A stretch of 64,000 bases of DNA from Flectonema sp. DT1601 (lineage: Eukaryota), in NCBI GenBank assembly GCA_964019425.1, contig OZ025801.1, forward strand, positions 1-64,000, given 5' to 3'. Both the position numbers and the translations under genes were made by a program. The notes below the pieces were generated by a model. The model did no database searches. It saw only the letters and a list, made by a program, of their open reading frames with translations, and was not told the origin of the DNA. The number at the start of each line of letters is the position of its first letter. Position 1 is the stretch's first letter. Below, piece by piece: positions 13,118-47,935 of this stretch.

Positions 13118-13173
13118 TAATTGCGCTTGCCTTCCATATCATGCACCTGACGAATGAAATGTATAGATGAAAC
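13118..13173 (-). mobile_element. 56-bp stub of the YR retrotransposon 3' terminus (B repeat) in an SL exon
   Basis: Matches 28699-28754 with the same gtacag|taattgcg junction, then joins LINE RT sequence. Confidence 0.92.

Positions 13174-23354: not shown

Positions 23355-23387
<33 letters not shown>

Positions 23388-23640: not shown

Positions 23641-23675
<35 letters not shown>
21080..23675. repeat. AT-rich minisatellite, about 19 units of roughly 110-150 bp
   Basis: Recurring AAACAATGTTATCATTGTTT, TCGACTATGTCGA and CGTCCTGGTCA(A/G)GACG, separated by variable A and T tracts. Confidence 0.92.
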
Positions 23676-23678
<3 letters not shown>

Positions 23679-25918: not shown

Positions 25919-25922
<4 letters not shown>

Positions 25923-28698
25923 ATTGCAGATTTTTTTATTTCTTAGGGGTTTGACCCACCATGAAAAAATTCGCAGAAAAGATTTATTAGCAGAGTATTG
26001 CTGGGGCTCGGTCTTAGCTTTAACATTAACACAGGAGCGGCGAAAATTACGTCTTTCGGGGGGAAAAGCCAAAAGAAAAATATATTAAATAATATAAATT
26101 AAATTTTCTACATAAAAATAGGATAAGCACGGTAAGTCTCGGTTCATTTTCTCTGCTTGGCAAACAGAGGTGAACGGGCAATAAAAAAACCCCAAAAGAA
26201 GAGAATTCTTCCTAAGAGGTTGGCTAAATATTCTAAGCAAGCTTAGATATTGAGACTGTACCAATAAAGTACAGAAACTGTAGCTTTAGAATCGTTGGTT
26301 AACCTTAAAAAGCAGTTACCCCAGGTAATTAGAAATTGTGTGGCTTTTAGAACTACCAGCCAGAACTAGCAGAAATGCTTGCTTGCGGGTAGGGAAGTAA
26401 GGGAAAAAGCCTGCAAGCACCCGGGGTTCCCACGTGATCACTCACCGCAGTACTAACCAGGCCTGCTGGTGCTTAACTTCCCAAATCGGGCGGGATGGGG
26501 TGCATTCACCAGAGTATGGCCGCAGGCAATTGCAGATTTTTTTATTTCTTAGGGGTTTGACCCACCATGAAAAAATTCGCAGAAAAGATTTATTAGCAGA
26601 GTATTGCTGGGGCTCGGTCTTAGCTTTAACATTAACACAGGAGCGGCGAAAATTACGTCTTTCGGGGGGAAAAGCCAAAAGAAAAATATATTAAATAATA
26701 TAAATTAAATTTTCTACATAAAAATAGGATAAGCACGGTAAGTCTCGGTTCATTTTCTCTGCTTGGCAAACAGAGGTGAACGGGCAATAAAAAAACCCCA
26801 AAAGAAGAGAATTCTTCCTAAGAGGTTGGCTAAATATTCTAAGCAAGCTTAGATATTGAGACTGTACCAATAAAGTACAGAAACTGTAGCTTTAGAATCG
26901 TTGGTTAACCTTAAAAAGCAGTTACCCCAGGTAATTAGAAATTGTGTGGCTTTTAGAACTACCAGCCAGAACTAGCAGAAATGCTTGCTTGCGGGTAGGG
27001 AAGTAAGGGAAAAAGCCTGCAAGCACCCGGGGTTCCCACGTGATCACTCACCGCAGTACTAACCAGGCCTGCTGGTGCTTAACTTCCCAAATCGGGCGGG
27101 ATGGGGTGCATTCACCAGAGTATGGCCGCAGGCAATTGCAGATTTTTTTATTTCTTAGGGGTTTGACCCACCATGAAAAAATTCGCAGAAAAGATTTATT
27201 AGCAGAGTATTGCTGGGGCTCGGTCTTAGCTTTAACATTAACACAGGAGCGGCGAAAATTACGTCTTTCGGGGGGAAAAGCCAAAAGAAAAATATATTAA
27301 ATAATATAAATTAAATTTTCTACATAAAAATAGGATAAGCACGGTAAGTCTCGGTTCATTTTCTCTGCTTGGCAAACAGAGGTGAACGGGCAATAAAAAA
27401 ACCCCAAAAGAAGAGAATTCTTCCTAAGAGGTTGGCTAAATATTCTAAGCAAGCTTAGATATTGAGACTGTACCAATAAAGTACAGAAACTGTAGCTTTA
27501 GAATCGTTGGTTAACCTTAAAAAGCAGTTACCCCAGGTAATTAGAAATTGTGTGGCTTTTAGAACTACCAGCCAGAACTAGCAGAAATGCTTGCTTGCGG
27601 GTAGGGAAGTAAGGGAAAAAGCCTGCAAGCACCCGGGGTTCCCACGTGATCACTCACCGCAGTACTAACCAGGCCTGCTGGTGCTTAACTTCCCAAATCG
27701 GGCGGGATGGGGTGCATTCACCAGAGTATGGCCGCAGGCAATTGCAGATTTTTTTATTTCTTAGGGGTTTGACCCACCATGAAAAAATTCGCAGAAAAGA
27801 TTTATTAGCAGAGTATTGCTGGGGCTCGGTCTTAGCTTTAACATTAACACAGGAGCGGCGAAAATTACGTCTTTCGGGGGGAAAAGCCAAAAGAAAAATA
27901 TATTAAATAATATAAATTAAATTTTCTACATAAAAATAGGATAAGCACGGTAAGTCTCGGTTCATTTTCTCTGCTTGGCAAACAGAGGTGAACGGGCAAT
28001 AAAAAAACCCCAAAAGAAGAGAATTCTTCCTAAGAGGTTGGCTAAATATTCTAAGCAAGCTTAGATATTGAGACTGTACCAATAAAGTACAGAAACTGTA
28101 GCTTTAGAATCGTTGGTTAACCTTAAAAAGCAGTTACCCCAGGTAATTAGAAATTGTGTGGCTTTTAGAACTACCAGCCAGAACTAGCAGAAATGCTTGC
28201 TTGCGGGTAGGGAAGTAAGGGAAAAAGCCTGCAAGCACCCGGGGTTCCCACGTGATCACTCACCGCAGTACTAACCAGGCCTGCTGGTGCTTAACTTCCC
28301 AAATCGGGCGGGATGGGGTGCATTCACCAGAGTATGGCCGCAGGCAATTGCAGATTTTTTTATTTCTTAGGGGTTTGACCCACCATGAAAAAATTCGCAG
28401 AAAAGATTTATTAGCAGAGTATTGCTGGGGCTCGGTCTTAGCTTTAACATTAACACAGGAGCGGCGAAAATTACGTCTTTCGGGGGGAAAAGCCAAAAGA
28501 AAAATATATTAAATAATATAAATTAAATTTTCTACATAAAAATAGGATAAGCACGGTAAGTCTCGGTTCATTTTCTCTGCTTGGCAAACAGAGGTGAACG
28601 GGCAATAAAAAAACCCCAAAAGAAGAGAATTCTTCCTAAGAGGTTGGCTAAATATTCTAAGCAAGCTTAGATATTGAGACTGTACCAATAAAGTACAG
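25919..28698 (-). repeat. SL + 5S array type A, block 2 (four 5S genes)
   Basis: Same as block 1 at offset +15581. 5S genes at 26408-26527, 27014-27133, 27620-27739 and 28226-28345. Confidence 0.97.
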
Positions 28699-29374
28699 TA
28701 ATTGCGCTTGCCTTCCATATCATGCACCTGACGAATGAAATGTATAGATGAAACTAATTAAACTAATAAAGCAAACTAATGGATCAAACTAGCAAACACA
28801 GAGAAGCTGTCTAAGACAGTTTATTGCGTTGGGGTAGTGGCTGGTGCCCGTTTCGATTCGGCGTGACACCGGCCGGAGGGATGGAGGGTGGGTTTTTCTT
28901 TTACTTTTAGTGGTGAGATGTGACAAAGTGGCAAATAACTGCAAAAGTAAAAGAATAAATTTATTAGAATCCAAATAATTTAAACTATAACAAAAAGACA
29001 GCTTAGCACCAAAGCTCCATGATTTTTTACTGCTAACAGAATTAGCAGCCGAACACCTAGATTTCAAAACCAGATTGCCTACTAAAAGGAGTCCTTTCTC
29101 ATCCTATTATACCTTATCTATCTTTCCTAAACCTGCTTATGCGCAGAAATCCAGCATCTTTTCCTTGGGCAAAAACCTTTCTTACTTTTCTAGTAAGAAA
29201 GTTTTCTGCCTAAATTCTGGTGCATTTTGGATGGCTGCGCAATTACTGAAATAAATTTGCAATAATTGCGCTTGCCTTCCATATCATGCACCTGACGAAT
29301 GAAATGTATAGATGAAACTAATTAAACTAATAAAGCAAACTAATGGATCAAACTAGCAAACACAGAGAAGCTGT

Positions 29375-32300
29375 CTAAGACAGTTTATTGCGTTGGGGTA
29401 GTGGCTGGTGCCCGTTTCGATTCGGCGTGACACCGGCTCCGCCACCCCGTCGCGAGTTGAAGAAGCCCCCGAGCGCAAGTTCGACCTTCGCCCTCGTTTC
29501 CGAGGTGATAGGCTCCCTCGAGGGGATGTCTGCGGGGTTATACTTTGTGCTCACCCATTGAAGTGTGAAAGAACATTTTAAACGAAGTAATTTTTCTATT
29601 GAAACTAAAATAAATGAATTAAGAGAGTGTGAGCGAGCACACATCTTCTTTCTGAAAGATCCGCAGACCGTGGTGTTATCGACCCAGATGGACAAATGGT
29701 CCGCTCTAGTAATAGCGCTCAAAGTCTTCCCTAAAGCATCTGCCTCGAGAATGTTAATATGGCGTTCTTCGCCTAAAGGCCATTGGCCACCTAAGATTTC
29801 CATCTCTGCAGAGTCCCAAACAATCACACCTCCCCAGCCCTTGAGCGAGGCATCGATAAAGACCTCTGCAGTTTTACCGACCTTCTCAACTGGTAAAATA
29901 GTACGTCCCTTCTGGACTTGGTGCATCCACGCGCGCAGCTCAGCTTTCACTGAGTTTGGTAAAGAAATCTTTTCTGAAACAAGAATTGCTCCTCGATTGA
30001 GCTTATTAGTAAGTCTTCGCAGAAACTTCATTGCAAACCAGAACCTACCAGGAGGGACCCCCGATATGGCACTAGCATGCAAAAGCCTGCCCGAAAGAGA
30101 TTCTGCTGCTGCTGCAGTTATGCAGTTCAAATTGCAAGCTTTTATTCTTTTAGTAATCTTTTCACCTAAAGAAACTTCCCTAGTAGGATGTGAGAAAAAT
30201 GCACCTAAAAATTCGTATTCAGTGCCTAAATTAACAGTATCTTGTACCTTCCAGGTTGCGTTGCAAAGCCTGGCAAACTCGTCCATTCTATTCGTGGCCT
30301 CTCGGACCCTTTCTTTATCCCCATAAATCCTTATATTATCTATCCACCAATCAATTTTCACTTGCTTTTCTGCAAATTCTGGCCTAACAAACAAGGGGTC
30401 GCCAGAAACTACTGCAGTAATCGTATTCATAATTTCGGGCGCACAAACGTGCCCCATCGGTAATCTGGTTAGCGCGAACCAGTCCCCCGAGGCATCCTCG
30501 AAGGTAAAAAGAGGTCTCGAAGCCTCTGGAATAAGTATCTGATAAAAACCTGTTTTAAAGTCTCTTAAAGAAGCTACTTCTGAGTGCACTGCACCTAAGT
30601 ACTTCGAGATATGTTGTAAAGGTACAAACGGTTCATATCCAGTCTCGTAAATCTTCTCGTTCTCTTCCTTAGTCCACAAGATAAAGCGCTGCCTATCTCC
30701 TGTCTCCCTTTCCTCGAAAACTGTGAAAGGCACGTTCCTGGACTTAGAAAGTTCCTTCTTAAAAGGTACTGCAATTTTACACCTTACTAACTCCTTAGAG
30801 TGAAGACAGGAAAGCTTTGTTTTTTGAAAAGAATTTTGGGTTTTTTTATCTTTCAGGTGGGGAGTGGTGGAATGGTTGGAGGGAGAACGGGATGAGTGTC
30901 TCGAAGGGTCGTTAGGGAGCGCCGGTTCGAGTCTGGGAGGGGGATTCTTCTCTCTATTTTTACCTAAACTTTTCAGATTTCCTGCATTTTTAAATGTCAA
31001 GTCCCAAGTCTCGTTGAAACGCTCTAGGACGCTCGGAAGCATCCGGTCTTTGATTATTTGAATATCCATCGGCTGTACGATCGCTGCGTGTAGTGGGGCC
31101 GACTTCTCGTAGCTCGTACTCGGTATCCTTGTTGACTTAGCCCTGTGTGTGAACTGAGCCCCCATTTTTCTTATCAGTTTTATAGGAACCTCGTCACTAA
31201 GGATGTCTTCAGAGCCCGAGCGGTGGCGATTGCGTTCCCTCCGTATCTTATTGTTGTATTTGAGATCGCCGACGTCGTCGAGTGCTTTGCAAGGCGGCTT
31301 ATCAGCTCTTCCTTCAGGTCGCATCCGCTCGCGAGGAGCTCTAGTAAGGTGCTTATTGCGCCTCTTTTTATCGAGTGGGCTGTATAGGTTTTCATAATAC
31401 TGTCTTCCTTCCACTCTTTTACTAGTCGTGATGTGTCCCACGGATGTAAGGTTTCGAATTCTTCTATTTCCGTCAGTCCATCCGCTATTTCCCCCACGAG
31501 ATCCCCGACCAACACGGCCCATCTGCTCGGGTAGAACGGATTGCCTCTGCGGCCCTTTGGTGTGGTTGCCCAATCTATTATTATTTCTTCCTTTGAAATT
31601 AGTATAAACTGCTCCCTTGCTAGTCCTGCTGTCTCTCCCCATCGTGCGGCTGCCTTCCAGCTGATGAGCATCGCGACTCTCGTCCTCGTACATTGTTTCA
31701 TCGCCCATCCTACTAAGTGCTCCCTCTTCATGGGGATTGCTTGCTGAGTTGGAATGTTCCCTCCTGCTGCTCTGATTGCTGCTGCTAAGGTTAAAAGTGG
31801 CTTGCTGTCCATTCCCATCTTCCCCATCAGGGCTGACAGGTGCTTTGAATATGTAAGAAGCGCCGATTCCGCTGCTCCCGTTGCCATCACGAAGAGAACA
31901 GCTGTGTCCCCATTGACTTGTAGGTTCTGGCTGCCTGCCCAATTTATCAGTCTCTTCCAGAGCTGCTTCCTGCTGGAAGTGGTCTCCTTTGCCCACATCT
32001 TCTCCATTGTCTCTCCAAGTCTTTCTGTTGCTTGGAGCACTCCCACAGAGTCTTCCTTCTGATTTCTGCTCAGGGCAGAGGGCTCCACTATGTCTAGAAG
32101 GACATTTTGGATCACCCCTGAAGAGTCCCTTCTGGGTTCTTCCTCCACTTTTTCTACTAAGTCTGTCTTTTCCAGATTTTTGAGATTCTTTGAATTTTCC
32201 CTGACTGGACTTAGAGATGAGATACTTTTTGAAATTGCCATCCCAGGCTTTCCCGGGGTATACCTGCGCATTAGACCAATTACTTTGAGATTTCTCTGAA

Positions 32301-32416
32301 TTTTCAGTGTTCCTCTTTCTATTTCTACCTGCTTCTTTACCTTCAATATTTGTAGCAAGTTTCCCGAGGCTCTTGCTCTCCTCACTGGCAGTGTGGGGCT
32401 GGACGTCGCCAGTCAT
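29375..32416 (-). CDS. Reverse transcriptase / RNase H (DIRS group)
   Basis: RT motifs RDFKTGFYQ, RLPMG, WIDN and EFLG. RNase H motifs FIDAS..GWG, HINILEA, VDNTT and NPADIPSR. The first ~410 codons overlap the YR ORF, so the true start is uncertain. Confidence 0.9.
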   Translation of the reverse strand: MTGDVQPHTASEESKSLGKLATNIEGKEAGRNRKRNTENSEKSQSNWSNAQVYPGKAWDGNFKKYLISKSSQGKFKESQKSGKDRLSRKSGGRTQKGLFRGDPKCPSRHSGALCPEQKSEGRLCGSAPSNRKTWRDNGEDVGKGDHFQQEAALEETDKLGRQPEPTSQWGHSCSLRDGNGSSGIGASYIFKAPVSPDGEDGNGQQATFNLSSSNQSSRREHSNSASNPHEEGALSRMGDETMYEDESRDAHQLEGSRTMGRDSRTSKGAVYTNFKGRNNNRLGNHTKGPQRQSVLPEQMGRVGRGSRGGNSGWTDGNRRIRNLTSVGHITTSKRVEGRQYYENLYSPLDKKRRNKHLTRAPRERMRPEGRADKPPCKALDDVGDLKYNNKIRRERNRHRSGSEDILSDEVPIKLIRKMGAQFTHRAKSTRIPSTSYEKSAPLHAAIVQPMDIQIIKDRMLPSVLERFNETWDLTFKNAGNLKSLGKNREKNPPPRLEPALPNDPSRHSSRSPSNHSTTPHLKDKKTQNSFQKTKLSCLHSKELVRCKIAVPFKKELSKSRNVPFTVFEERETGDRQRFILWTKEENEKIYETGYEPFVPLQHISKYLGAVHSEVASLRDFKTGFYQILIPEASRPLFTFEDASGDWFALTRLPMGHVCAPEIMNTITAVVSGDPLFVRPEFAEKQVKIDWWIDNIRIYGDKERVREATNRMDEFARLCNATWKVQDTVNLGTEYEFLGAFFSHPTREVSLGEKITKRIKACNLNCITAAAAESLSGRLLHASAISGVPPGRFWFAMKFLRRLTNKLNRGAILVSEKISLPNSVKAELRAWMHQVQKGRTILPVEKVGKTAEVFIDASLKGWGGVIVWDSAEMEILGGQWPLGEERHINILEADALGKTLSAITRADHLSIWVDNTTVCGSFRKKMCARSHSLNSFILVSIEKLLRLKCSFTLQWVSTKYNPADIPSREPITSETRAKVELALGGFFNSRRGGGAGVTPNRNGHQPLPQRNKLS
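31180..32385 (-). CDS. Tyrosine recombinase
   Basis: Catalytic pattern R (AARWGE), HxxR (HSIKRG), H (AKH) and Y (TIRY). The start is uncertain (the ORF track uses GTG). Confidence 0.9.
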   Translation of the reverse strand: MRRARASGNLLQILKVKKQVEIERGTLKIQRNLKVIGLMRRYTPGKPGMAISKSISSLSPVRENSKNLKNLEKTDLVEKVEEEPRRDSSGVIQNVLLDIVEPSALSRNQKEDSVGVLQATERLGETMEKMWAKETTSSRKQLWKRLINWAGSQNLQVNGDTAVLFVMATGAAESALLTYSKHLSALMGKMGMDSKPLLTLAAAIRAAGGNIPTQQAIPMKREHLVGWAMKQCTRTRVAMLISWKAAARWGETAGLAREQFILISKEEIIIDWATTPKGRRGNPFYPSRWAVLVGDLVGEIADGLTEIEEFETLHPWDTSRLVKEWKEDSIMKTYTAHSIKRGAISTLLELLASGCDLKEELISRLAKHSTTSAISNTTIRYGGNAIATARALKTSLVTRFL

Positions 32417-33477
32417 TGTCCCCCAGCCCTTCCGTTTCCCTGTCCTTGCTGGAACGTCCTACGGAATGGAACATATCCTCCTTTTCTTCCTTTTGTACTT
32501 GCACTGCTTGTAAGGTTTCTGGTAATTGCTTTCTTCTTTGCCATAAGTACTGCATTAGCCTTCTGTAATGGATCATTAGCCTCTGTTTTAAGCTGATTGA
32601 TTAGATCCGACCTCTTTGTCCCATTCATGCAATACATATTCTGAATCTTCAAATCTCTCAACAAGTTATTTCCTAATGAGACTGCATTCTCGTTCTTGTC
32701 CCATCCTGGGATGAATTCCATAGCTAATATGAATCTTTCTAAGTTATTGTAATAATTCTCTAGCAACTCAACCCCTGGTCCAGGGGGAACTCTTCCTACG
32801 AATTTTGATTCCAGTTTAATCAGCAAGATCTCTGTCAGCCGTTGTTCCATGATTGGAATCCAGTCTAAAACACTATTCGTGTCTAATACAGCAGACTGCA
32901 TCTGTGAATCTTCTTCTCCACCTTGCTGAGTACCTTGCTGAGGCGCTGCAGGAAGCACTGGTGGTGGTACAGGCTGTGGCCCCTGCGAGGTCTGCTGATG
33001 TGGTGTATTTTGAAAATGCTGCTGGAGCTGTTGCTGTAATTGTTGCTGAAGCTGCTGCTGAAACTGCAGTTGAGACTGTTGAAACTGCTGGAACTGATCT
33101 TTAATTCCAATTACTTCTTGTTTGAGGATGTTTGTCTCATGCGAACGCACCTCGCTCTCTTGTCGAACTGCAGCATCCCGCTTCTGACTTTCTTCCCTCG
33201 TGCGTGCTATCACGGCAGCTGCGATTCCTGGTTCGATTTCACTCACATTAGGAGCTTCTAATACATCTATTTTGATACATCCTGTTTGTCCCAGTTCCCT
33301 AACAGTTTTACTCATAGCTTGGTTATAAATTCCACCCTTGCCTGCTCTGTCAATCTTCACTATTCCTTCTAATGGTAAATCATTAACGAAGAAGGCCCTA
33401 ACTTTGTGGCCCATTGTGCTTGCTAGAAATCCTTCAATCTCATCATCATTCATGCACTTAATAGTTGCAGTAGTCAT
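32413..33477 (-). CDS. Gag-like protein (354 aa, Gln-rich coiled coil)
   Basis: First ORF of the element. Its ATG (MTTATIKC) lies at the inner edge of repeat A1, 45 nt after a splice acceptor. The gag label is positional only. Confidence 0.75.
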   Translation of the reverse strand: MTTATIKCMNDDEIEGFLASTMGHKVRAFFVNDLPLEGIVKIDRAGKGGIYNQAMSKTVRELGQTGCIKIDVLEAPNVSEIEPGIAAAVIARTREESQKRDAAVRQESEVRSHETNILKQEVIGIKDQFQQFQQSQLQFQQQLQQQLQQQLQQHFQNTPHQQTSQGPQPVPPPVLPAAPQQGTQQGGEEDSQMQSAVLDTNSVLDWIPIMEQRLTEILLIKLESKFVGRVPPGPGVELLENYYNNLERFILAMEFIPGWDKNENAVSLGNNLLRDLKIQNMYCMNGTKRSDLINQLKTEANDPLQKANAVLMAKKKAITRNLTSSASTKGRKGGYVPFRRTFQQGQGNGRAGGQ

Positions 33478-33522
33478 TTTTCTTTTACTTTTAGTGGTGA
33501 GATGTGACAAAGTGGCAAATAA

Positions 33523-33545
33523 CTGCAAAAGTAAAAGAATAAATT
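33523..33545 (-). promoter_or_regulatory. Polypyrimidine tract + CAG splice acceptor for the gag mRNA
   Basis: Minus strand ATTTATTCTTTTACTTTTGCAG|TTATTTGCC. Copy 3 has an SL exon joined at exactly this AG. Confidence 0.8.
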
Positions 33546-33846
33546 TATTAGAATCCAAATAATTTAAACTATAACAAAAAGACAACTTAGCACCAAAACT
33601 CCATGATTTTTTACTGCTAACTGAATTAGCAGCCGAACACCTAGATTTCAAAACCAGATTGCCTACTAAAAGGAGTCCTTTCTCATCCTATTATACCTTA
33701 TCTATCTTTCCTAAACCTGCTTATGCGCAGAAATCCAGCATCTTTTCCTTGGGCAAAAACCTTTCTTACTTTTCTAGTAAGAAAGTTTTCTGCCTAAATT
33801 CTGGTGCATTTTGGATGGCTGCGCAATTACTGAAATAAATTTGCAA

Positions 33847-35060: not shown

Positions 35061-35736
35061 TAATTGCGCTTGCCTTCCATATCATGCACCTGACGAATGG
35101 AATGTATAGATGAAACTAATTAAACTAATAAAACAAACTAATGGATCAAACTAGCAAACACAGAGAAGCTGTCTAAGACAGTTTATTGCGTTGGGGTAGT
35201 GGCTGGTGCCCGTTTCGATTCGGCGTGACACCGGCCGGAGGGATGGAGGGTGGGTTTTTCTTTTACTTTTAGTGGTGAGATGTGACAAAGTGGCAAATAA
35301 CTGCAAAAGTAAAAGAATAAATTTATTAGAATCCAAATTATTTAAACTATAACAAAAAGACAGCTTAGCACCAAAGCTCCATGATTGTTTACTGCTAACT
35401 GAATTAGCAGCCGAACACCTAGATTTCAAAACCAGATTGCCTACTAAAAGGAGTCCTTTCTCATCCTATTATACCTTATCTATCTTTCCTAAACCTGCTT
35501 ATGCGCAGAAATCCAGCATCTTTTCCTTGGGCAAAAACCTTTCTTACTTTTCTAGTAAGAAAGTTTTCTGCCTAAATTCTGGTGCATTTTGGATGGCTGC
35601 GCAATTACTGAAATAAATTTGCAATAATTGCGCTTGCCTTCCATATCATGCACCTGACGAATGGAATGTATAGATGAAACTAATTAAACTAATAAAACAA
35701 ACTAATGGATCAAACTAGCAAACACAGAGAAGCTGT

Positions 35737-38700
35737 CTAAGACAGTTTATTGCGTTGGGGTAGTGGCTGGTGCCCGTTTCGATTCGGCGTGACACCGGCT
35801 CCGCCACCCCGTCGCGAGTTGAAGAAGCCCCCGAGCGCAAGTTCGACCTTCGCCCTCGTCTCCGAGGTGATAGGCTCCCTCGAGGGGATGTCTGCGGGGT
35901 TATACTTTGTGCTCACCCATTGAAGTGTGAAAGAACATTTTAAACGAAGTAATTTTTCTATTGAAACTAAAATAAATGAATTAAGAGAGTGTGAGCGAGC
36001 ACACATCTTCTTTCTGAACGATCCGCAGACCGTGGTGTTATCGACCCAGATGGACAAATGGTCCGCTCTAGTAATAGCGCTCAAAGTCTTCCCTAAGGCA
36101 TCTGCCTCGAGAATGTTAATATGGCGTTCTTCGCCTAAAGGCCATTGGCCACCTAAGATTTCCATCTCTGCAGAGTCCCAAACAATCACACCTCCCCAGC
36201 CCTTGAGCGAGGCATCGATAAAGACCTCTGCAGTTTTACCGACCTTCTCATCTGGTAAAATAGTACGTCCCTTCTGGACTTGGTGCATCCACGCGCGCAG
36301 CTCAGCTTTCACTGAGTTTGGTAAAGAAATCTTTTCCGAAACAAGAATTGCTCCTCGATTGAGCTTATTAGTAAGTCTTCGCAGAAACTTCATTGCAAAC
36401 CAGAACCTACCAGGAGGGACCCCCGATATGGCACTAGCATGCAAAAGCCTGCCCGAAAGAGATTCTGCTGCTGCTGCAGTTATGCAGTTCAAATTGCAAG
36501 CTTTTATTCTTTTAGTAATCTTTTCACCTAAAGAAACTTCCCTAGTAGGATGTGAGAAAAATGCACCTAAAAATTCGTATTCAGTGCCTAAATTAACAGT
36601 ATCTTGTACCTTCCAGGTTGCGTTGCAAAGCCTGGCAAACTCGTCCATTCTATTCGTGGCCTCTCGGACCCTTTCTTTATCCCCATAAATCCTTATATTA
36701 TCTATCCACCAATCAATTTTCACTTGCTTTTCTGCAAATTCTGGCCTAACAAACAAGGGGTCGCCAGAAACTACTGCAGTAATCGTATTCATAATTTCGG
36801 GCGCACAAACGTGCCCCATCGGTAATCTGGTTAGCGCGAACCAGTCCCCCGAGGCATCCTCGAAGGTAAAAAGAGGTCTCGAAGCCTCTGGAATAAGTAT
36901 CTGATAAAAACCTGTTTTAAAGTCTCTTAAAGAAGCTACTTCTGAGTGCACTGCACCTAAGTACTTCGAGATATGTTGTAAAGGTACAAACGGTTCATAT
37001 CCAGTCTCGTAAATCTTCTCGTTCTCTTCCTTAGTCCACAAGATAAAGCGCTGCCTATCTCCTGTCTCCCTTTCCTCGAAAACTGTGAAAGGCACGTTCC
37101 TGGACTTAGAAAGTTCCTTCTTAAAAGGTACTGCAATTTTACACCTTACTAACTCCTTAGAGTGAAGACAGGAAAGCTTTGTTTTTTGAAAAGAATTTTG
37201 GGTTTTTTTATCTTTCAGGTGGGGAGTGGTGGAATGGTTGGAGGGAGAACGGGATGAGTGTCTCGAAGGGTCGTTAGGGAGCGCCGGTTCGAGTCTGGGA
37301 GGGGGATTCTTCTCTCTATTTTTACCTAAACTTTTCAGATTTCCTGCATTTTTAAATGTCAAGTCCCAAGTCTCGTTGAAACGCTCTAGGACGCTCGGAA
37401 GCATCCGGTCTTTGATTATTTGAATATCCATCGGCTGTACGATCGCTGCGTGTAATGGGGCCGACTTCTCGTAGCTCGTACTCGGTATCCTTGTTGACTT
37501 AGCCCTGTGTGTGAACTGAGCCCCCATTCTTCTTATCAGTTTTATAGGAACTTCGTCACTAAGGATGTCTTCAGGGCCCGAGCGGTGGCGATTGCGTTCC
37601 CTCCGTATCTTATTGTTGTATTTGAGATCGCCGACGTCGTCGAGTGCTTTGCAAGGCGGCTTATCAGCTCTTCCTTCAGGTCGCATCCGCTCGCGAGGAG
37701 CTCTAGTAAGGTGCTTATTGCGCCTCTTTTTATCGAGTGGGCTGTATAGGTTTTCATAATACTGTCTTCCTTCCACTCTTTTACTAGTCGTGATGTGTCC
37801 CACGGATGTAAGGTTTCGAATTCTTCTATTTCCGTCAGTCCATCCGCTATTTCCTCCACGAGATCCCCGACCAACACGGCCCATCTGCTCGGGTAGAACG
37901 GATTGCCTCTGCGGCCCTTTGGTGTGGTTGCCCAATCTATTATTATTTCTTCCTTTGAAATTAGTATAAACTGCTCCCTTGCTAGTCCTGCTGTCTCTCC
38001 CCATCGTGCGGCTGCCTTCCAGCTGATGAGCATCGCGACTCTCGTCCTCGTACATTGTTTCATCGCCCATCCTACTAAGTGCTCCCTCTTCATGGGGATT
38101 GCTTGCTGAGTTGGAATGTTCCCTCCTGCTGCTCTGATTGCTGCTGCTAAGGTTAAAAGTGGCTTGCTGTCCATTCCCATCTTCCCCATCAGGGCTGACA
38201 GGTGCTTTGAATATGTAAGAAGCGCCGATTCCGCTGCTCCCGTTGCCATCACGAAGAGAACAGCTGTGTCCCCATTGACTTGTAGGTTCTGGCTGCCTGC
38301 CCAATTTATCAGTCTCTTCCAGAGCTGCTTCCTGCTGGAAGTGGTCTCCTTTGCCCACATCTTCTCCATTGTCTCTCCAAGTCTTTCTGTTGCTTGGAGC
38401 ACTCCCACAGAGTCTTCCTTCTGATTTCTGCTCAGGGCAGAGGGCTCCACTATGTCTAGAAGGACATTTTGGATCACCCCTGAAGAGTCCCTTCTGGGTT
38501 CTTCCTCCACTTTTTCTACTAAGTCTGTCTTTTCCAGATTTTTGAGATTCTTTGAATTTTCCCTGACTGGACTTAGAGATGAGATACTTTTTGAAATTGC
38601 CATCCCAGGCTTTCCCGGGGTATACATGCGCATTAGACCAATTACTTTGAGATTTCTCTGAATTTTCAGTGTTCCTCTTTCTATTTCTACCTGCTTCTTT

Positions 38701-38778
38701 ACCTTCAATATTTGTAGCAAGTTTCCCGAGGCTCTTGCTCTCCTCACTGGCAGTGTAGGGCTGGACGTCGCCAGTCAT
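35737..38778 (-). CDS. RT/RNase H, copy 2
   Basis: Intact and near-identical to 29375-32416. Confidence 0.9.
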   Translation of the reverse strand: MTGDVQPYTASEESKSLGKLATNIEGKEAGRNRKRNTENSEKSQSNWSNAHVYPGKAWDGNFKKYLISKSSQGKFKESQKSGKDRLSRKSGGRTQKGLFRGDPKCPSRHSGALCPEQKSEGRLCGSAPSNRKTWRDNGEDVGKGDHFQQEAALEETDKLGRQPEPTSQWGHSCSLRDGNGSSGIGASYIFKAPVSPDGEDGNGQQATFNLSSSNQSSRREHSNSASNPHEEGALSRMGDETMYEDESRDAHQLEGSRTMGRDSRTSKGAVYTNFKGRNNNRLGNHTKGPQRQSVLPEQMGRVGRGSRGGNSGWTDGNRRIRNLTSVGHITTSKRVEGRQYYENLYSPLDKKRRNKHLTRAPRERMRPEGRADKPPCKALDDVGDLKYNNKIRRERNRHRSGPEDILSDEVPIKLIRRMGAQFTHRAKSTRIPSTSYEKSAPLHAAIVQPMDIQIIKDRMLPSVLERFNETWDLTFKNAGNLKSLGKNREKNPPPRLEPALPNDPSRHSSRSPSNHSTTPHLKDKKTQNSFQKTKLSCLHSKELVRCKIAVPFKKELSKSRNVPFTVFEERETGDRQRFILWTKEENEKIYETGYEPFVPLQHISKYLGAVHSEVASLRDFKTGFYQILIPEASRPLFTFEDASGDWFALTRLPMGHVCAPEIMNTITAVVSGDPLFVRPEFAEKQVKIDWWIDNIRIYGDKERVREATNRMDEFARLCNATWKVQDTVNLGTEYEFLGAFFSHPTREVSLGEKITKRIKACNLNCITAAAAESLSGRLLHASAISGVPPGRFWFAMKFLRRLTNKLNRGAILVSEKISLPNSVKAELRAWMHQVQKGRTILPDEKVGKTAEVFIDASLKGWGGVIVWDSAEMEILGGQWPLGEERHINILEADALGKTLSAITRADHLSIWVDNTTVCGSFRKKMCARSHSLNSFILVSIEKLLRLKCSFTLQWVSTKYNPADIPSREPITSETRAKVELALGGFFNSRRGGGAGVTPNRNGHQPLPQRNKLS
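37542..38747 (-). CDS. Tyrosine recombinase, copy 2
   Basis: R-HxxR-H-Y residues intact. Confidence 0.9.
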   Translation of the reverse strand: MRRARASGNLLQILKVKKQVEIERGTLKIQRNLKVIGLMRMYTPGKPGMAISKSISSLSPVRENSKNLKNLEKTDLVEKVEEEPRRDSSGVIQNVLLDIVEPSALSRNQKEDSVGVLQATERLGETMEKMWAKETTSSRKQLWKRLINWAGSQNLQVNGDTAVLFVMATGAAESALLTYSKHLSALMGKMGMDSKPLLTLAAAIRAAGGNIPTQQAIPMKREHLVGWAMKQCTRTRVAMLISWKAAARWGETAGLAREQFILISKEEIIIDWATTPKGRRGNPFYPSRWAVLVGDLVEEIADGLTEIEEFETLHPWDTSRLVKEWKEDSIMKTYTAHSIKRGAISTLLELLASGCDLKEELISRLAKHSTTSAISNTTIRYGGNAIATARALKTSLVTKFL

Positions 38779-39839
38779 TGTCCCCCAGCCCTTCCGTTTC
38801 CCTGTCCTCGCTGGAACGTCCTACGGAATGGAACATATCCTCCTTTTCTTCCTTTTGTACTTGCACTGCTTGTAAGGTTTCTGGTAATTGCTTTCTTCTT
38901 TGCCATAAGTACTGCATTAGCCTTCTGTAATGGATCATTAGCCTCTGTTTTAAGCTGATTGATTAGATCCGACCTCTTTGTCCCATTCATGCAATACATA
39001 TTTTGAATCTTCAAATCTCTCAACAAGTTATTTCCTAATGAGACTGCATTCTCGTTCTTGTCCCATCCTGGGATGAATTCCATAGCTAATATGAATCTTT
39101 CTAAGTTATTGTAATAATTCTCTAGCAACTCAACCCCTGGTCCAGGGGGAACTCTTCCTACGAATTTTGATTCCAGTTTAATCAGCAAGACCTCTGTCAG
39201 CCGTTGTTCCATGATTGGAATCCAGTCTAAAACACTATTCGTGTCTAATACAGCAGACTGCATCTGTGAATCTTCTTCTCCACCTTGCTGAGTACCTTGC
39301 TGAGGCGCTGCAGGAAGCACTGGTGGTGGTACAGGCTGTGGCCCCTGCGAGGTCTGCTGATGTGGTGTATTTTGAAAATGCTGCTGGAGCTGTTGCTGTA
39401 ATTGTTGCTGAAGCTGCTGCTGAAACTGCAGTTGAGACTGTTGAAACTGCTGGAACTGATCTTTAATTCCAATTACTTCTTGTTTGAGGATGTTTGTCTC
39501 ATGCGAACGCACCTCGCTCTCTTGTCGAACTGCAGCATCCCGCTTCTGACTTTCTTCCCTCGTGCGTGCTATCACGGCAGCTGCGATTCCTGGTTCGATT
39601 TCACTCACATTAGGAGCTTCTAATACATCTATTTTGATACATCCTGTTTGTCCCAGTTCCCTAACAGTTTTACTCATAGCTTGGTTATAAATTCCACCCT
39701 TGCCTGCTCTGTCAATCTTCACTATTCCTTCTAATGGTAAATCAATAACGAAGAAGGCCCTAACCTTGTGGCCCATTGTGCTTGCTAGAAATCCTTCAAT
39801 CTCATCATCATTCATGCACTTAATAGTTGCAGTAGTCAT
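38775..39839 (-). CDS. Gag-like protein, copy 2
   Basis: Near-identical to copy 1. Confidence 0.75.
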   Translation of the reverse strand: MTTATIKCMNDDEIEGFLASTMGHKVRAFFVIDLPLEGIVKIDRAGKGGIYNQAMSKTVRELGQTGCIKIDVLEAPNVSEIEPGIAAAVIARTREESQKRDAAVRQESEVRSHETNILKQEVIGIKDQFQQFQQSQLQFQQQLQQQLQQQLQQHFQNTPHQQTSQGPQPVPPPVLPAAPQQGTQQGGEEDSQMQSAVLDTNSVLDWIPIMEQRLTEVLLIKLESKFVGRVPPGPGVELLENYYNNLERFILAMEFIPGWDKNENAVSLGNNLLRDLKIQNMYCMNGTKRSDLINQLKTEANDPLQKANAVLMAKKKAITRNLTSSASTKGRKGGYVPFRRTFQRGQGNGRAGGQ

Positions 39840-40208
39840 TTTTCTTTTACTTTTAGTGGTGAGATGTGACAAAGTGGCAAATAACTGCAAAAGTAAAAGA
39901 ATAAATTTATTAGAATCCAAATTATTTAAACTATAACAAAAAGACAGCTTAGCACCAAAGCTCCATGATTGTTTACTGCTAACTGAATTAGCAGCCGAAC
40001 ACCTAGATTTCAAAACCAGATTGCCTACTAAAAGGAGTCCTTTCTCATCCTATTATACCTTATCTATCTTTCCTAAACCTGCTTATGCGCAGAAATCCAG
40101 CATCTTTTCCTTGGGCAAAAACCTTTCTTACTTTTCTAGTAAGAAAGTTTTCTGCCTAAATTCTGGTGCATTTTGGATGGCTGCGCAATTACTGAAATAA
40201 ATTTGCAA

Positions 40209-42632: not shown

Positions 42633-43308
42633 TAATTGCGCTCGCCTTCCATATCATGCACCTGACGAATGAAATGTATAGATGAAACTAATTAAACTAA
42701 TAAAACAAACTAATGGATCAAACTAGCAAACACAGAGAAGCTGTCTAAGACAGTTTATTGCGTTGGGGTAGTGGCTGGTGCCCGTTTCGATTCGGCGTGA
42801 CACCGGCCGGAGGGATGGAGGGTGGGTTTTTCTTTTACTTTTAGTGGTGAGATGTGACAAAGTGGCAAATAACTGCAAAAGTAAAAGAATAAATTTATTA
42901 GAATCCAAATTATTTAAACTATAACAAAAAGACAACTTAGCACCAAAACTCCATGATTTTTTACTGCTAACTGAATTAGCAGCCGAACGCCTAGATTTCA
43001 AAACCAGATTGCCTACTAAAAGGAGTCCCTTCCCATCCTATTATACCTTATCTATCTTTCCTAAACCTGCTTATGCGCAGAAATCCAGCATCTTTTCCTT
43101 GGGCAAAAACCTTTCTTACTTTTCTAGTAAGAAAGTTTTCTGCCTAAATTCTGGTGCATCTTGGATGGCTGCGCAATTACTGAAATAAATTTGCAATAAT
43201 TGCGCTCGCCTTCCATATCATGCACCTGACGAATGAAATGTATAGATGAAACTAATTAAACTAATAAAACAAACTAATGGATCAAACTAGCAAACACAGA
43301 GAAGCTGT

Positions 43309-46300
43309 CTAAGACAGTTTATTGCGTTGGGGTAGTGGCTGGTGCCCGTTTCGATTCGGCGTGACACCGGCTCCGCCACCCCGTCGCGAGTTGAAGAAGC
43401 CCCCGAGCGCAAGTTCGACCTTCGCCCTCGTCTCCGAGGTGATAGGCTCCCTCGAGGGGATGTCTGCGGGGTTATACTTTGTGCTCACCCATTGAAGTGT
43501 GAAAGAACATTTTAAACGAAGTAATTTTTCTATTGAAACTAAAATAAATGAATTAAGAGAGTGTGAGCGAGCACACATCTTCTTTCTGAACGATCCGCAG
43601 ACCGTGGTGTTATCGACCCAGATGGACAAATGGTCCGCTCTAGTAATAGCGCTCAAAGTCTTCCCTAAGGCATCTGCCTCGAGAATGTTAATATGGCGTT
43701 CTTCGCCTAAAGGCCATTGGCCACCTAAGATTTCCATCTCTGCAGAGTCCCAAACAATCACACCTCCCCAGCCCTTGAGCGAGGCATCGATAAAGACCTC
43801 TGCAGTTTTACCGACCTTCTCATCTGGTAAGATAGTACGTCCCTTCTGGACTTGGTGCATCCACGCGCGCAGCTCAGCTTTCACTGAGTTTGGTAAAGAA
43901 ATCTTTTCCGAAACAAGAATTGCTCCTCGATTGAGCTTATTAGTAAGTCTTCGCAGAAACTTCATTGCAAACCAGAACCTACCAGGAGGGACTCCTGATA
44001 TGGCACTAGCATGCAAAAGCCTGCCCGAAAGAGATTCTGCTGCTGCTGCAGTTATGCAGTTCAAATTGCAAGCTTTTATTCTTTTAGTAATCTTTTCACC
44101 TAAAGAAACTTCCCTAGTAGGATGTGAGAAAAATGCACCTAAAAATTCGTATTCAGTGCCTAAATTAACAGTATCTTGTACCTTCCAGGTTGCGTTGCAA
44201 AGCCTGGCAAACTCGTCCATTCTATTCGTGGCCTCTCGGACCCTTTCTTTATCCCCATAAATCCTTATATTATCTATCCACCAATCAATTTTCACTTGCT
44301 TTTCTGCAGATTCTGGCCTAACAAACAAGGGGTCGCCAGAAACTACTGCAGTAATCGTATTCATAATTTCGGGCGCACAAACGTGCCCCATCGGTAATCT
44401 GGTTAGCGCGAACCAGTCCCCCGAGGCATCCTCGAAGGTAAAAAGAGGTCTCGAAGCCTCTGGAATAAGTATCTGATAAAAACCTGTTTTAAAGTCTCTT
44501 AAAGAAGCTACTTCTGAGTGCACTGCACCTAAGTACTTCGAGATATGTTGTAAAGGTACAAACGGTTCATATCCAGTCTCGTAAATCTTCTCGTTCTCTT
44601 CCTTAGTCCACAAGATAAAGCGCTGCCTATCTCCTGTCTCCCTTTCCTCGAAAACTGTGAAAGGCACGTTCCTGGACTTAGAAAGTTCCTTCTTAAAAGG
44701 TACTGCAATTTTACACCTTACTAACTCCTTAGAGTGAAGACAGGAAAGCTTTGTTTTTTGAAAAGAATTTTGGGTTTTTTTATCTTTCAGGTGGGGAGTG
44801 GTGGAATGGTTGGAGGGAGAACGGGATGAGTGTCTCGAAGGGTCGTTAGGGAGCGCCGGTTCGAGTCTGGGAGGGGGATTCTTCTCTCTATTTTTACCTA
44901 AACTTTTCAGATTTCCTGCATTTTTAAATGTCAAGTCCCAAGTCTCGTTGAAACGCTCTAGGACGCTCGGAAGCATCTGGTCTTTGATTATTTGAATATC
45001 CATCGGCTGTACGATCGCTGCGTGTAATGGGGCCGACTTCTCGTAGCTCGTACTCGGTATCCTTGTTGACTTAGCCCTGTGTGTGAACTGAGCCCCCATT
45101 TTTCTTATCAGTTTTATAGGAACTTCGTCACTAAGGATGTCTTCAGGGCCCGAGCGGTGGCGATTGCGTTCCCTCCGTATCTTATTGTTGTATTTGAGAT
45201 CGCCGACGTCGTCGAGTGCTTTGCAAGGCGGCTTATCAGCTCTTCCTTCAGGTCGCATCCGCTCGCGAGGAGCTCTAGTAAGGTGCTTATTGCGCCTCTT
45301 TTTATCGAGTGGGCTGTATAGGTTTTCATAATACTGTCTTCCTTCCACTCTTTTACTAGTCGTGATGTGTCCCACGGATGTAAGGTTTCGAATTCTTCTA
45401 TTTCCGTCAGTCCATCCGCTATTTCCTCCACGAGATCCCCGACCAACACGGCCCATCTGCTCGGGTAGAACGGATTGCCTCTGCGGCCCTTTGGTGTGGT
45501 TGCCCAATCTATTATTATTTCTTCCTTTGAAATTAGTATAAACTGCTCCCTTGCTAGTCCTGCTGTCTCTCCCCATCGTGCGGCTGCCTTCCAGCTGATG
45601 AGCATCGCGACTCTCGTCCTCGTACATTGTTTCATCGCCCATCCTACTAAGTGCTCCCTCTTCATGGGGATTGCTTGCTGAGTTGGAATGTTCCCTCCTG
45701 CTGCTCTGATTGCTGCTGCTAAGGTTAAAAGTGGCTTGCTGTCCATTCCCATCTTCCCCATCAGGGCTGACAGGTGCTTTGAATATGTAAGAAGCGCCGA
45801 TTCCGCTGCTCCCGTTGCCATCACGAAGAGAACAGCTGTGTCCCCATTGACTTGTAGGTTCTGGCTGCCTGCCCAATTTATCAGTCTCTTCCAGAGCTGC
45901 TTCCTGCTGGAAGTGGTCTCCTTTGCCCACATCTTCTCCATTGTCTCTCCAAGTCTTTCTGTTGCTTGGAGCACTCCCACAGAGTCTTCCTTCTGATTTC
46001 TGCTCAGGGCAGAGGGCTCCACTATGTCTAGAAGGACATTTTGGATCACCCCTGAAGAGTCCCTTCTGGGTTCTTCCTCCACTTTTTCTACTAAGTCTGT
46101 CTTTTCCAGATTTTTGAGATTCTTTGAATTTTCCCTGACTAGACTTAGAGATGAGATACTTTTTGAAATTGCCATCCCAGGCTTTCCCGGGGTATACCTG
46201 CGCATTAGACCAATTACTTTGAGATTTCTCTGAATTTTCAGTGTTCCTCTTTCTATTTCTACCTGCTTCTTTACCTTCAATATTTGTAGCAAGTTTCCCA

Positions 46301-46350
46301 AGGCTCTTGCTCTCCTCACTGGCAGTGTAGGGCTGGACGTCGCCAGTCAT
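43309..46350 (-). CDS. RT/RNase H, copy 3
   Basis: Intact and near-identical to the other copies. Confidence 0.9.
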   Translation of the reverse strand: MTGDVQPYTASEESKSLGKLATNIEGKEAGRNRKRNTENSEKSQSNWSNAQVYPGKAWDGNFKKYLISKSSQGKFKESQKSGKDRLSRKSGGRTQKGLFRGDPKCPSRHSGALCPEQKSEGRLCGSAPSNRKTWRDNGEDVGKGDHFQQEAALEETDKLGRQPEPTSQWGHSCSLRDGNGSSGIGASYIFKAPVSPDGEDGNGQQATFNLSSSNQSSRREHSNSASNPHEEGALSRMGDETMYEDESRDAHQLEGSRTMGRDSRTSKGAVYTNFKGRNNNRLGNHTKGPQRQSVLPEQMGRVGRGSRGGNSGWTDGNRRIRNLTSVGHITTSKRVEGRQYYENLYSPLDKKRRNKHLTRAPRERMRPEGRADKPPCKALDDVGDLKYNNKIRRERNRHRSGPEDILSDEVPIKLIRKMGAQFTHRAKSTRIPSTSYEKSAPLHAAIVQPMDIQIIKDQMLPSVLERFNETWDLTFKNAGNLKSLGKNREKNPPPRLEPALPNDPSRHSSRSPSNHSTTPHLKDKKTQNSFQKTKLSCLHSKELVRCKIAVPFKKELSKSRNVPFTVFEERETGDRQRFILWTKEENEKIYETGYEPFVPLQHISKYLGAVHSEVASLRDFKTGFYQILIPEASRPLFTFEDASGDWFALTRLPMGHVCAPEIMNTITAVVSGDPLFVRPESAEKQVKIDWWIDNIRIYGDKERVREATNRMDEFARLCNATWKVQDTVNLGTEYEFLGAFFSHPTREVSLGEKITKRIKACNLNCITAAAAESLSGRLLHASAISGVPPGRFWFAMKFLRRLTNKLNRGAILVSEKISLPNSVKAELRAWMHQVQKGRTILPDEKVGKTAEVFIDASLKGWGGVIVWDSAEMEILGGQWPLGEERHINILEADALGKTLSAITRADHLSIWVDNTTVCGSFRKKMCARSHSLNSFILVSIEKLLRLKCSFTLQWVSTKYNPADIPSREPITSETRAKVELALGGFFNSRRGGGAGVTPNRNGHQPLPQRNKLS
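45114..46319 (-). CDS. Tyrosine recombinase, copy 3
   Basis: Catalytic residues intact. Confidence 0.9.
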   Translation of the reverse strand: MRRARALGNLLQILKVKKQVEIERGTLKIQRNLKVIGLMRRYTPGKPGMAISKSISSLSLVRENSKNLKNLEKTDLVEKVEEEPRRDSSGVIQNVLLDIVEPSALSRNQKEDSVGVLQATERLGETMEKMWAKETTSSRKQLWKRLINWAGSQNLQVNGDTAVLFVMATGAAESALLTYSKHLSALMGKMGMDSKPLLTLAAAIRAAGGNIPTQQAIPMKREHLVGWAMKQCTRTRVAMLISWKAAARWGETAGLAREQFILISKEEIIIDWATTPKGRRGNPFYPSRWAVLVGDLVEEIADGLTEIEEFETLHPWDTSRLVKEWKEDSIMKTYTAHSIKRGAISTLLELLASGCDLKEELISRLAKHSTTSAISNTTIRYGGNAIATARALKTSLVTKFL

Positions 46351-47393
46351 TGTCCCCCAGCCCTTCCGTTTCCCTGTCCTCGCTGGAACGTCCTACGGAA
46401 TGGAACATATCCTCCTTTTCTTCCTTTTGTACTTGCACTGCTTGTAAGGTTTCTGGTAATTGCTTTCTTCTTTGCCATAAGTACTGCATTAGCCTTCTGT
46501 AATGGATCATTAGCCTCTGTTTTAAGCTGATTGATTAGATCCGACCTCTTTGTCCCATTCATGCAATACATATTCTGAATCTTCAAATCTCTCAACAAGT
46601 TATTTCCTAATGAGACTGCATTCTCGTTCTTGTCCCATCCTGGGATGAATTCCATAGCTAATATGAATCTTTCTAAGTTATTGTAATAATTCTCTAGCAA
46701 CTCAACCCCTGGTCCAGGGGGAACTCTTCCTACGAATTTTGATTCCAGTTTAATCAGCAAGATCTCTGTCAGCCGTTGTTCCATGATTGGAATCCAGTCT
46801 AAAACACTATTCGTGTCTAATACAGCAGACTGCATCTGTGAATCTTCTTCTCCACCTTGATGAGTACCTTGCTGAGGCGCTGCAGGAAGCACTGGTGGTG
46901 GTACAGGCTGTGGCCCCTGTGAGGTCTGCTGATGTGGTGTATTTTGAAAATGCTGCTGGAGCTGTTGCTGTAATTGTTGCTGAAGCTGCTGCTGAAACTG
47001 CAGTTGAGACTGTTGAAACTGCTGGAACTGATCTTTAATTCCAATTACTTCTTGTTTGAGGATGTTTGTCTCATGCGAACGCACCTCGCTCTCTTGTCGA
47101 ACTGCAGCATCCCGCTTCTGACTTTCTTCCCTCGTGCGTGCTATCACGGCAGCTGCGATTCCTGGTTCGATTTCACTCACATTAGGAGCTTCACATCCTG
47201 TTTGTCCCAGTTCCCTAACAGTTTTACTCATAGCTTGGTTATAAATTCCACCCTTGCCTGCTCTGTCAATCTTCACTATTCCTTCTAATGGTAAATCATT
47301 AACGAAGAAGGCCCTAACTTTGTGGCCCATTGTGCTTGCTAGAAATCCTTCAATCTCATCATCATTCATGCACTTAATAGTTGCAGTAGTCAT
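46347..47393 (-). CDS. Gag-like protein, copy 3 (lacks IKIDVL)
   Basis: GQTGC|EAPN here versus GQTGCIKIDVLEAPN in copies 1 and 2. Confidence 0.75.
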   Translation of the reverse strand: MTTATIKCMNDDEIEGFLASTMGHKVRAFFVNDLPLEGIVKIDRAGKGGIYNQAMSKTVRELGQTGCEAPNVSEIEPGIAAAVIARTREESQKRDAAVRQESEVRSHETNILKQEVIGIKDQFQQFQQSQLQFQQQLQQQLQQQLQQHFQNTPHQQTSQGPQPVPPPVLPAAPQQGTHQGGEEDSQMQSAVLDTNSVLDWIPIMEQRLTEILLIKLESKFVGRVPPGPGVELLENYYNNLERFILAMEFIPGWDKNENAVSLGNNLLRDLKIQNMYCMNGTKRSDLINQLKTEANDPLQKANAVLMAKKKAITRNLTSSASTKGRKGGYVPFRRTFQRGQGNGRAGGQ

Positions 47394-47935
47394 TTTTCTT
47401 TTACTTTTAGTGGTGAGATGTGACAAAGTGGCAAATAACAATAAAGTACAGAAACTGTAGCTTTAGAATCGTTGGTTAACCTTAAAAAGGTGCCTACTAA
47501 AAGGAGTCCTTTCTCATCCTATTATACCTTATCTATCTTTCCTAAACCTGCTCATGCACAGAAATCCAGCATCTTTTCCTTGGGCAAAAACCTTTCTTAC
47601 TTTTCTAGTAAGAAAGTTTTCTGCCTAAATTCTGGTGCATTTTGGATGGCTGCGCAATTACTGAAATAAATTTGCAAAAACTGTAGCTTTAGAATCGTTG
47701 GTTAACCTTAAAAAGTAGTTACCCCAGGTGATTAGAAATTACGTGGCTTTTAGAACTACCAGCCAGTACTAACAGAAATGCTTGCTTGCGGGTAGGGAAG
47801 TAAGGGAAAAAGCCTGCAAGCACCCGGGGTTCCCACGTGATCACTCACCGCAGTACTAACCAGGCCTGCTGGTGCTTAACTTCCCAAATCGGGCGGGATG
47901 GGGTGCATTCACCAGAGTATGGCCGCAGGCAATAG

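Follow-up and report, generated by a model that had tools for sequence, protein, structure and literature searches.

VIPER and TATE are the described elements to which this locus bears the closest likeness. In the portions of PMC6681497 and PMC12278014 available to us, these retrotransposons have the layout A1-gag-YR-RT/RH-B1-A2-B2 (YR, tyrosine recombinase; RT/RH, reverse transcriptase/RNase H), with overlapping YR and RT frames and, for VIPER, no target duplication, and a solo A-B copy corresponds to SIRE. The trypanosome VIPERs covered there are dispersed, having six different flanks, whereas TATE of L. braziliensis, with the same YR and split direct repeats, has a site-specific multicopy target (telomeric GGG^TTA). 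A fixed position in spliced leader (SL) RNA genes is likewise occupied by the non-LTR elements CRE, SLACS and CZAR, according to the accessible text of PMC12278014. These differ in carrying a restriction-like endonuclease and a poly(A) tail and in making target duplications, and have neither a YR nor split repeats. Their site lies nearer the 5' end of the SL exon than the one described below. DIRS-1 of Dictyostelium is a further YR retrotransposon, for which the excerpts we consulted describe a self-complementary, asymmetric circle junction (inverted ends of 33 and 55 bases), long inverted terminal repeats, an internal complementary region, a methylase and identical end trinucleotides; its cDNA is single-stranded, the recorded strand being antisense, and YR specificity in DIRS-order elements is said not yet to have been investigated experimentally (PMC7192593, in the part seen). 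Finally, in bacteria, integron attC x attI and CTXphi attP x dif recombination use a folded single-stranded donor, a double-stranded target, ~3 nt of microhomology, a single exchange and resolution by replication, as set out in the available parts of PMC4792948 and bioRxiv 2021.09.09.459576.

The window, a 64,000-nt stretch of contig OZ025801.1 from Flectonema sp. DT1601, contains three near-complete copies of an element (E1, E2 and E3) and one solo A-B copy, all inserted after nucleotide 26 of an SL exon (Table 1). The layout runs A1, gag-like ORF, YR, RT/RNase H, B1, A2, a 19-nt spacer and B2, thereby forming split direct repeats, and the order ORF1-YR-RT/RH with overlapping YR and RT/RH frames is that of VIPER. 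None of the CRE/SLACS hallmarks (restriction-like endonuclease, poly(A) tail, target duplication) was found in the YR element. On sequence grounds it is a VIPER-like YR retrotransposon, with the choice of VIPER over TATE made by comparing motifs by eye: ASRW, HSIKRG, RLPMG and WIDNI are common to the window element and C. fasciculata VIPER copies in the part of the records consulted. It differs from the trypanosome VIPERs in sitting on a single SL base and in having an unrelated junction sequence, and from TATE in target, TATE also having a common TT core, a cut inside the stem of its junction hairpin and a larger YR ORF.

Table 1. Positions of the element copies, their parts, the junction structures and an empty target in the window.
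Feature	Position	Strand	Remarks
Element copy E1, VIPER-like YR retrotransposon, 5148 bp	28699..33846	-	
Repeat A1, 370 bp	33477..33846	-	polypyrimidine tract and AG acceptor
ORF1, gag-like by position only	32413..33477	-	first ATG at 33477
ORF2, predicted tyrosine recombinase	31180..32412	-	stop to stop
ORF3, reverse transcriptase/RNase H	29375..32458	-	stop to stop, overlaps ORF2
Repeat B1, 175 bp	29263..29437	-	
Repeat A2, 370 bp	28893..29262	-	followed by unique 19-nt spacer, 28874-28892
Repeat B2, 175 bp	28699..28873	-	3' junction with SL exon between 28698 and 28699
Element copy E2	35061..40208	-	28 substitutions relative to E1
Element copy E3	42633..47677	-	captured SL exon in A1
Solo A-spacer-B element, 565 bp, SIRE-like	52118..52682	-	identical SL position
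B2 end, truncated	13118..13173	-	in exact duplicate of E1 flank, not an independent insertion
Asymmetric inverted repeat	29237..29271	-	9-bp arm 29263-29271 (last 9 nt of B)
Inverted-repeat spacer, 17 nt (first 17 nt of A)	29246..29262	-	partner arm 29237-29245
Full predicted junction hairpin with outer stem	29229..29280	-	
Short palindrome at internal B1/A2 (circle) junction	29259..29269	.	crossover between 29262 and 29263
Example empty target, 39-nt SL exon	28080..28118	-	insertion point after nt 26 (between 28092 and 28093)

The copies differ by 15-20 substitutions over a ~4 kb core, and in all three B1 and B2 of the same copy carry a common private substitution, which is expected if every copy had its own round of reverse transcription; the element looks intact and appears to have been recently active. 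Five left junctions are present, but the one at 13118 lies within a 4290-bp exact duplication (window 8884-13173 is identical to 24465-28754) that takes in four SL-5S units, a retroelement end with a poly(A) tail and 56 bp from the start of the B2 end, so that there are at most four independent insertions. In E3, part of A1 (47440-47490) is replaced by a whole SL exon together with ~12 nt of genomic upstream sequence, with the exon meeting the splice acceptor of the element exactly, and E3 thus contains an intact empty target within the element. This looks like a trans-spliced transcript that was copied back into DNA and then recombined with an SL gene.

ORF2 is a tyrosine recombinase with an R-K-H-R-H-Y catalytic set and a predicted Cre-like fold: R257, K286, H346, R350, H377 and Y390 are invariant in all 12 aligned proteins, and the best matches of the structure model (mean pLDDT 68.9, with residues 1-120 unreliable) are Cre-loxP structures (E 1e-6, TM ~0.5-0.6). 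A Pfam search of the element found neither YR nor RT and gave no family above cut-off for ORF1, and a sequence search of the PDB with the YR returned no match. Some ORF3 homologues carry PF17917/PF17919, although ORF3 itself has no Pfam match, and the named RT homologues are mostly Diplonema papillatum proteins (38-49% identity), which makes a diplonemid the probable host. Screening of metagenomes by RT alignment confirmed one of 50 pattern matches, on a 1.6-kb contig without ends, and none of 33 matches in viral contigs was confirmed. Among contigs of prokaryotic genomes, two of 119 were confirmed by YR alignment; neither split repeats nor a junction was found in these two contigs, and both are probably eukaryotic contamination. 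A contig in a bacterial metagenome-assembled genome (locus L002, 1-5944), probably eukaryotic contamination, holds a nearly whole VIPER-like element with gag-like, YR and RT/RH regions, the YR of which is 40% identical to that of the window.

The units of the target array are 606 or 603 bp long, and every one contains a 5S rRNA gene and a 39-nt minus-strand exon followed by a GT donor. Rfam gave 40 matches to 5S rRNA in the window and no match to a spliced leader, and the exon was recognised as the SL because the same 39 nt are found in E3 attached to an AG acceptor that follows a polypyrimidine tract, just upstream of the element's first ATG. We take it to be a Diplonema-type spliced leader. 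A ~220-bp insertion with a long T run (47930-48156) lies just upstream of a 5S gene, where the units switch from 606 to 603 bp. As RNA, the exon is predicted to fold into a hairpin of -6.2 kcal/mol (two of 200 shuffles were as stable) with a 10-bp stem, one bulged base and a 3-nt loop, and the insertion point is the 3' edge of this loop; presumably this is stem-loop I of euglenozoan SL RNA. Longer SL transcripts show a predicted competing pairing across the splice donor, and the exon hairpin is therefore not the sole predicted form.

All nine element junctions in the window lie at SL exon nucleotide 26, with no target-site duplication. In public runs (four, from three samples), five of five element-flank joints among the matches listed are the same two junctions, these coming from low-depth contigs in which rare variants are lost and with the best run possibly related to the source; no off-target joint was seen among these five, which is weak evidence for the same reason, and none of the public runs listed that carry the element is an RNA run. 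Insertion is therefore site-specific in the SL exon, at one exact base in every insertion seen. An element in SL orientation, 26 nt past the SL start, would come under the SL promoter. Among polymerase II genes of trypanosomatids, discrete promoters are confined to the SL genes (PMC6597758, in the part available), which is one reason to ask whether a YR with the loose, T-rich specificity of trypanosome VIPERs might be brought to the SL genes mainly by tethering to the SL transcription complex, by open DNA or by an extruded target cruciform, with arm resemblance being secondary. The target folds as DNA at a predicted -4 to -7 kcal/mol and the only base common to six of six T. cruzi VIPER flanks in the accessible supplement is a T at +1, both in keeping with such a mechanism, which is also compatible with a hairpin donor. 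None-the-less, the single-base precision of insertion, together with identity between donor junction and target at six of 11 positions (null p 0.009, post hoc), points to direct reading of the sequence, no tethering domain was identified in the element, and we regard tethering as the main determinant as very unlikely.

The sequence-only reading had taken the circle junction and the SL target for matching palindromes and, from these, a minimal attP/attB pair. Its description of the sequences was borne out. Self-BLAST showed that the internal B1/A2 junction, GCAA-TAA-TTGC (n=3 in the window, at 29259, 35621 and 43193), is the end of B1 and the start of A2, that is the two element ends joined. 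The empty target TACAG-AAA-CTGTA occurs 37 times (36 array units and the exon copy inside E3), and ACAG-TAA-TTGC (n=5, left) and GCAA-AAA-CTGT (n=4, right) are exact reciprocal recombinants. The crossover is unique, between G and A in the target and between A and T in the element, with no base common to both at the cut, and in both sequences it falls at the edge of a 3-nt core flanked by inverted arms. The core trinucleotides are TTT (target) at the 5' end and TTA (element) at the 3' end, with two of three bases matching.

A YR that binds RCAR/YTGY arms around a 3-nt core, and exchanges double-stranded donor and target at the core edges, would account for these palindromes, and a predicted Cre-like fold suits inverted arms just as the TTA/TTT pair recalls the DIRS trinucleotide rule. 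Nor is the donor palindrome readily put down to chance in this fixed register, since 4-bp arms around a 3-nt core on a fixed side are found at 0.6% of 4524 element positions and in 0.5% of 200,000 random joins, although the figure rises to ~9% when cores of 0-8 nt on either side are allowed; in the SL-5S unit, arms of at least 4 bp around a 3-nt core occur at six of 606 positions. Likewise, perfect palindromes make up 2.4% of random 11-mers that are equally target-like, against 0.5% when unconditioned, and resemblance to the target leaves the short element palindrome not fully explained away.

As a working att pair, however, the 4-bp arms and 3-nt core fare poorly. YR sites typically have inverted arms around spacers of 6-8 bp (PMC4792948, as far as the accessible text goes), whereas the arms here are of 4-5 bp around 3 nt, or 9 bp around 17 nt, and junctions predicted by 5-nt or 7-nt spacers on the same centre were not seen in the window. 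Nor do donor and target have the identical overlap of Cre/Xer sites, as TTA is set against TTT and both cut-flanking bases differ; compared with DIRS-1, the two cores differ at the base beside the cut. A 3-nt stagger would leave heteroduplex cores, and two product classes are then expected, yet the second class, with the element core on the other side, accounts for none of the nine window junctions, and the class that is observed has its mismatch next to the ligation point. Furthermore, RCAR-WAA-YTGY matches each of the four junction types equally well and so carries no information on direction, and with donor, target and products matching one consensus nothing would prevent reversal or use of chromosomal B1/A2. 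The consensus is expected once per ~33 kb, which is far too little information alone for a single target, and the sole ACAGAAATTGC match, at 16168, is not an element end, an unused match that weighs weakly against it. Symmetric arms at the cut are also absent, by eye, from all three relatives readable in the supplement excerpts: around a 3-nt core, the arms there reach at most 2 bp in T. cruzi VIPER, in copy 1 of C. fasciculata VIPER and in TATE of L. braziliensis. We therefore consider exchange between symmetric arms unlikely. Of the related proposal that the recombinase reads a palindrome in the most conserved part of the SL exon, the resemblance of donor to target was upheld, but the target palindrome is the top of the predicted exon RNA stem, and as the tip of a host RNA hairpin it drops out as evidence, even though the recombinase may still use it. 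All 37 exon copies in the window are identical.

The B1/A2 junction also contains a longer, asymmetric inverted repeat, the 9 nt that end B being the reverse complement of a 9-mer that begins 17 nt into A. The nine stem pairs have predicted pairing probabilities of 0.92-1.0, and the arms of the short palindrome have a pairing probability of 0.000 in the same folded strand. As DNA, the 52-nt junction is predicted to fold at -14.3 kcal/mol on the minus (sense) strand and -14.0 kcal/mol on the plus (antisense) strand (z -5.3 and -6.3), with none of 200 shuffles equally stable, for a fold window picked once the repeat was already known. A 9-bp arm ending exactly at the cut was found in 0.57% of 100,000 random joins and at six of 4464 element positions, and, of 2548 windows of 52 nt along the element, the 10 with a more stable fold all belong to one neighbouring hairpin in A. 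This neighbour, likewise strong (-15 kcal/mol as DNA), is directly beside the junction hairpin, at 29161-29218 and 33745-33802. For the integrated ends the predicted values are only -2.0 and -5.6 kcal/mol, compared with -14.3 for the joined ends. The cut falls exactly where the perfect 9-bp stem ends; beyond it the sense strand has only three predicted pairs, the first of which is T.G, and then an 11-nt loop, and the bases facing the next positions past the cut are CAG, complementary to the CTG that follows the cut in the target. Polymorphisms between copies spare the stem, with one in an unpaired bulge, in numbers too small to count. Of the two structures, it is probably this longer, asymmetric one that serves as donor.

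In our best explanation, to which we give close to an even chance of being right, the YR uses the predicted hairpin of the joined ends as its donor, cuts at the end of the 9-bp stem and swaps one strand. Reverse transcription would restore a circle, the junction of which copies B1/A2, and the sense strand of this junction would fold so that the terminal 9 nt of B pair with the inverted copy located 17 nt into A. The YR would bind this stem together with the left half of the target, which is similar to it (donor and target agree at -6, -5, -3 and -2 and show transitions at -8, -7 and -4), and would cut both sense strands at the crossover, upon which the freed target CTG could pair with the CAG facing the cut in the hairpin and the element's TTG with the target, leaving one T.G mismatch. 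CTXphi exchange tolerates wobble pairs. The branched product would then be resolved via replication or repair, and the short palindrome would have arisen largely because the element mimics a target that forms an RNA hairpin of its own. A folded donor and a single exchange would give one product class, directionality and an inert chromosomal copy: each integrated end keeps part of the hairpin, which we propose would make insertion one-way and leave the double-stranded chromosomal B1/A2 quiet. The single product class at nine of nine window junctions and at the five joints in public runs is consistent with a single exchange without being proof of it.

This scheme probably resembles attC and CTXphi recombination in that a stable hairpin containing the crossover is predicted; it differs in that those systems have both YR sites within the stem, one on each side of the cut (in the sources as accessible), whereas the far side of the cut here is mostly loop. 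The absence of an obvious second YR arm on that side is a difficulty for a folded donor, as is the antisense DIRS-1 cDNA for a sense-strand donor, although the hairpin folds on both strands. YR cutting geometry would favour the sense strand at this junction. As the main alternative, the hairpin might instead act at the RNA or reverse-transcription stage, in pausing, template switching or end restoration, with a double-stranded circle integrating at a short T-rich core in a DIRS-like manner and the target chosen by left-arm resemblance. The transcript contains the B1/A2 junction, which as RNA is predicted to fold at -23.4 kcal/mol (z -6.0), and the sense-strand T.G pairs found here, in T. cruzi and in C. 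fasciculata copy 1 fit a role in RNA equally well. The published DIRS model, in the part of PMC7192593 seen, is likewise one of a double-stranded circle and trinucleotide cores. However, action at the RNA stage leaves unexplained why the arm ends at the crossover in three elements of VIPER type, why there is complementarity between the target and the cut-facing bases (CAG/CTG here, A/T and AA/TT in relatives) and why the chromosomal double-stranded junction would be inert, and we hold it to be possible but rather doubtful.

Folding of the joined ends as donor can be compared, by eye, with the relatives covered in the available part of the PMC6681497 supplements. Of the six element types there, three have clear hairpins, one is weak (C. 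fasciculata copy 2) and two are unreadable (C. fasciculata copy 3, and B. saltans VIPER, where the junction is in a gap); two further TATE records were left out. In T. cruzi VIPER, GATTATTCT stands opposite AGAATGATC, with an outer stem of 4+7 bp, and the cut, at TTC|T|AGG, was set by six flanked 3' ends and 13 record starts; the 18 places compared comprise the six flanked 3' ends, seven internal junctions and five trimmed ends. Targets were compared on the 3' side, 5' flanks being trimmed in the supplement: the base facing +1 is A and the target has T there in all six flanks, whereas +2 is as expected from the facing base in just one of six. The hexamer ATTATT, also present in T. cruzi, was considered as a conserved mark of the cut and dropped, the T. 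cruzi cut being 3 nt further on. C. fasciculata VIPER copy 1 has ATTTTTC opposite GAAAAAT, a 7-bp arm with a 16-nt spacer, and only a T.G at +1. A junction hairpin with an offset of 16-17 nt is common to VIPER and the window element. In L. braziliensis TATE, 12 of 14 bases pair across the TT core and AA lies opposite the common TT, with the cut inside the stem, unlike the VIPER-type cuts at the stem end. The junction hairpin thus appears, in these partial records, to be kept in structure and not in sequence. A wider possibility, which we put forward with less confidence than the mechanism at this locus, is that VIPER and TATE integrate via a folded single-stranded junction in which the cut-facing bases serve as a 1-3 nt guide to the target, and that this lineage was retuned to the SL exon.

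No description of a YR element targeted to SL genes was found in the literature searched; the SL-targeting elements named in the accessible parts of PMC12278014 and PMC8869645 are non-LTR only, and the D. papillatum genome paper, as far as seen, defers its element analysis. Likewise, a search that lay outside the primary VIPER and Ngaro papers and Repbase gave no account of a hairpin at the VIPER, TATE or Ngaro junction, and none appears in the portions of PMC8547959, PMC4157794, PMC13465315 and PMC3418195 available, although an earlier description may exist. If the folded donor is correct, this would be a eukaryotic counterpart of integron and CTXphi recombination and the first SL-specific tyrosine recombinase retrotransposon. 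The element would be a second, mechanistically unrelated class homing to SL genes, and it points to a junction hairpin conserved between VIPER and TATE. The locus offers an apparently recently active element, one invariant target base and a donor site of ~50 nt, a defined donor/target pair for which the symmetric-att and folded-donor models make opposite predictions about DIRS-order integration.

The window has several further features. Positions 1-8884 hold ~1108 copies of the 8-mer GCGGGTTT, with the G-rich strand running towards the array, opposite to a normal left telomere, and these are abruptly joined to a retroelement fragment coding for RNase H. A poly(A)-tailed non-LTR element end, which codes for RNase H, is present at 24026-25917 and 8885-10337, with its tail adjoining the position of a 5S gene 5' end, and is possibly targeted to that position. 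We take it to be ingi-like. A 2046-codon open frame (13151-19291) begins at the break of the truncated YR element and contains two reverse transcriptase stretches, a zf-RVT and a restriction-like endonuclease motif; it seems to be a single frame made up of non-LTR elements that are nested or fused. The interval separating the two non-LTR remnants, 19786-23676, has degenerate, AT-rich tandem repeats of ~120-370 bp as well as a repeat of 212-224 bp.
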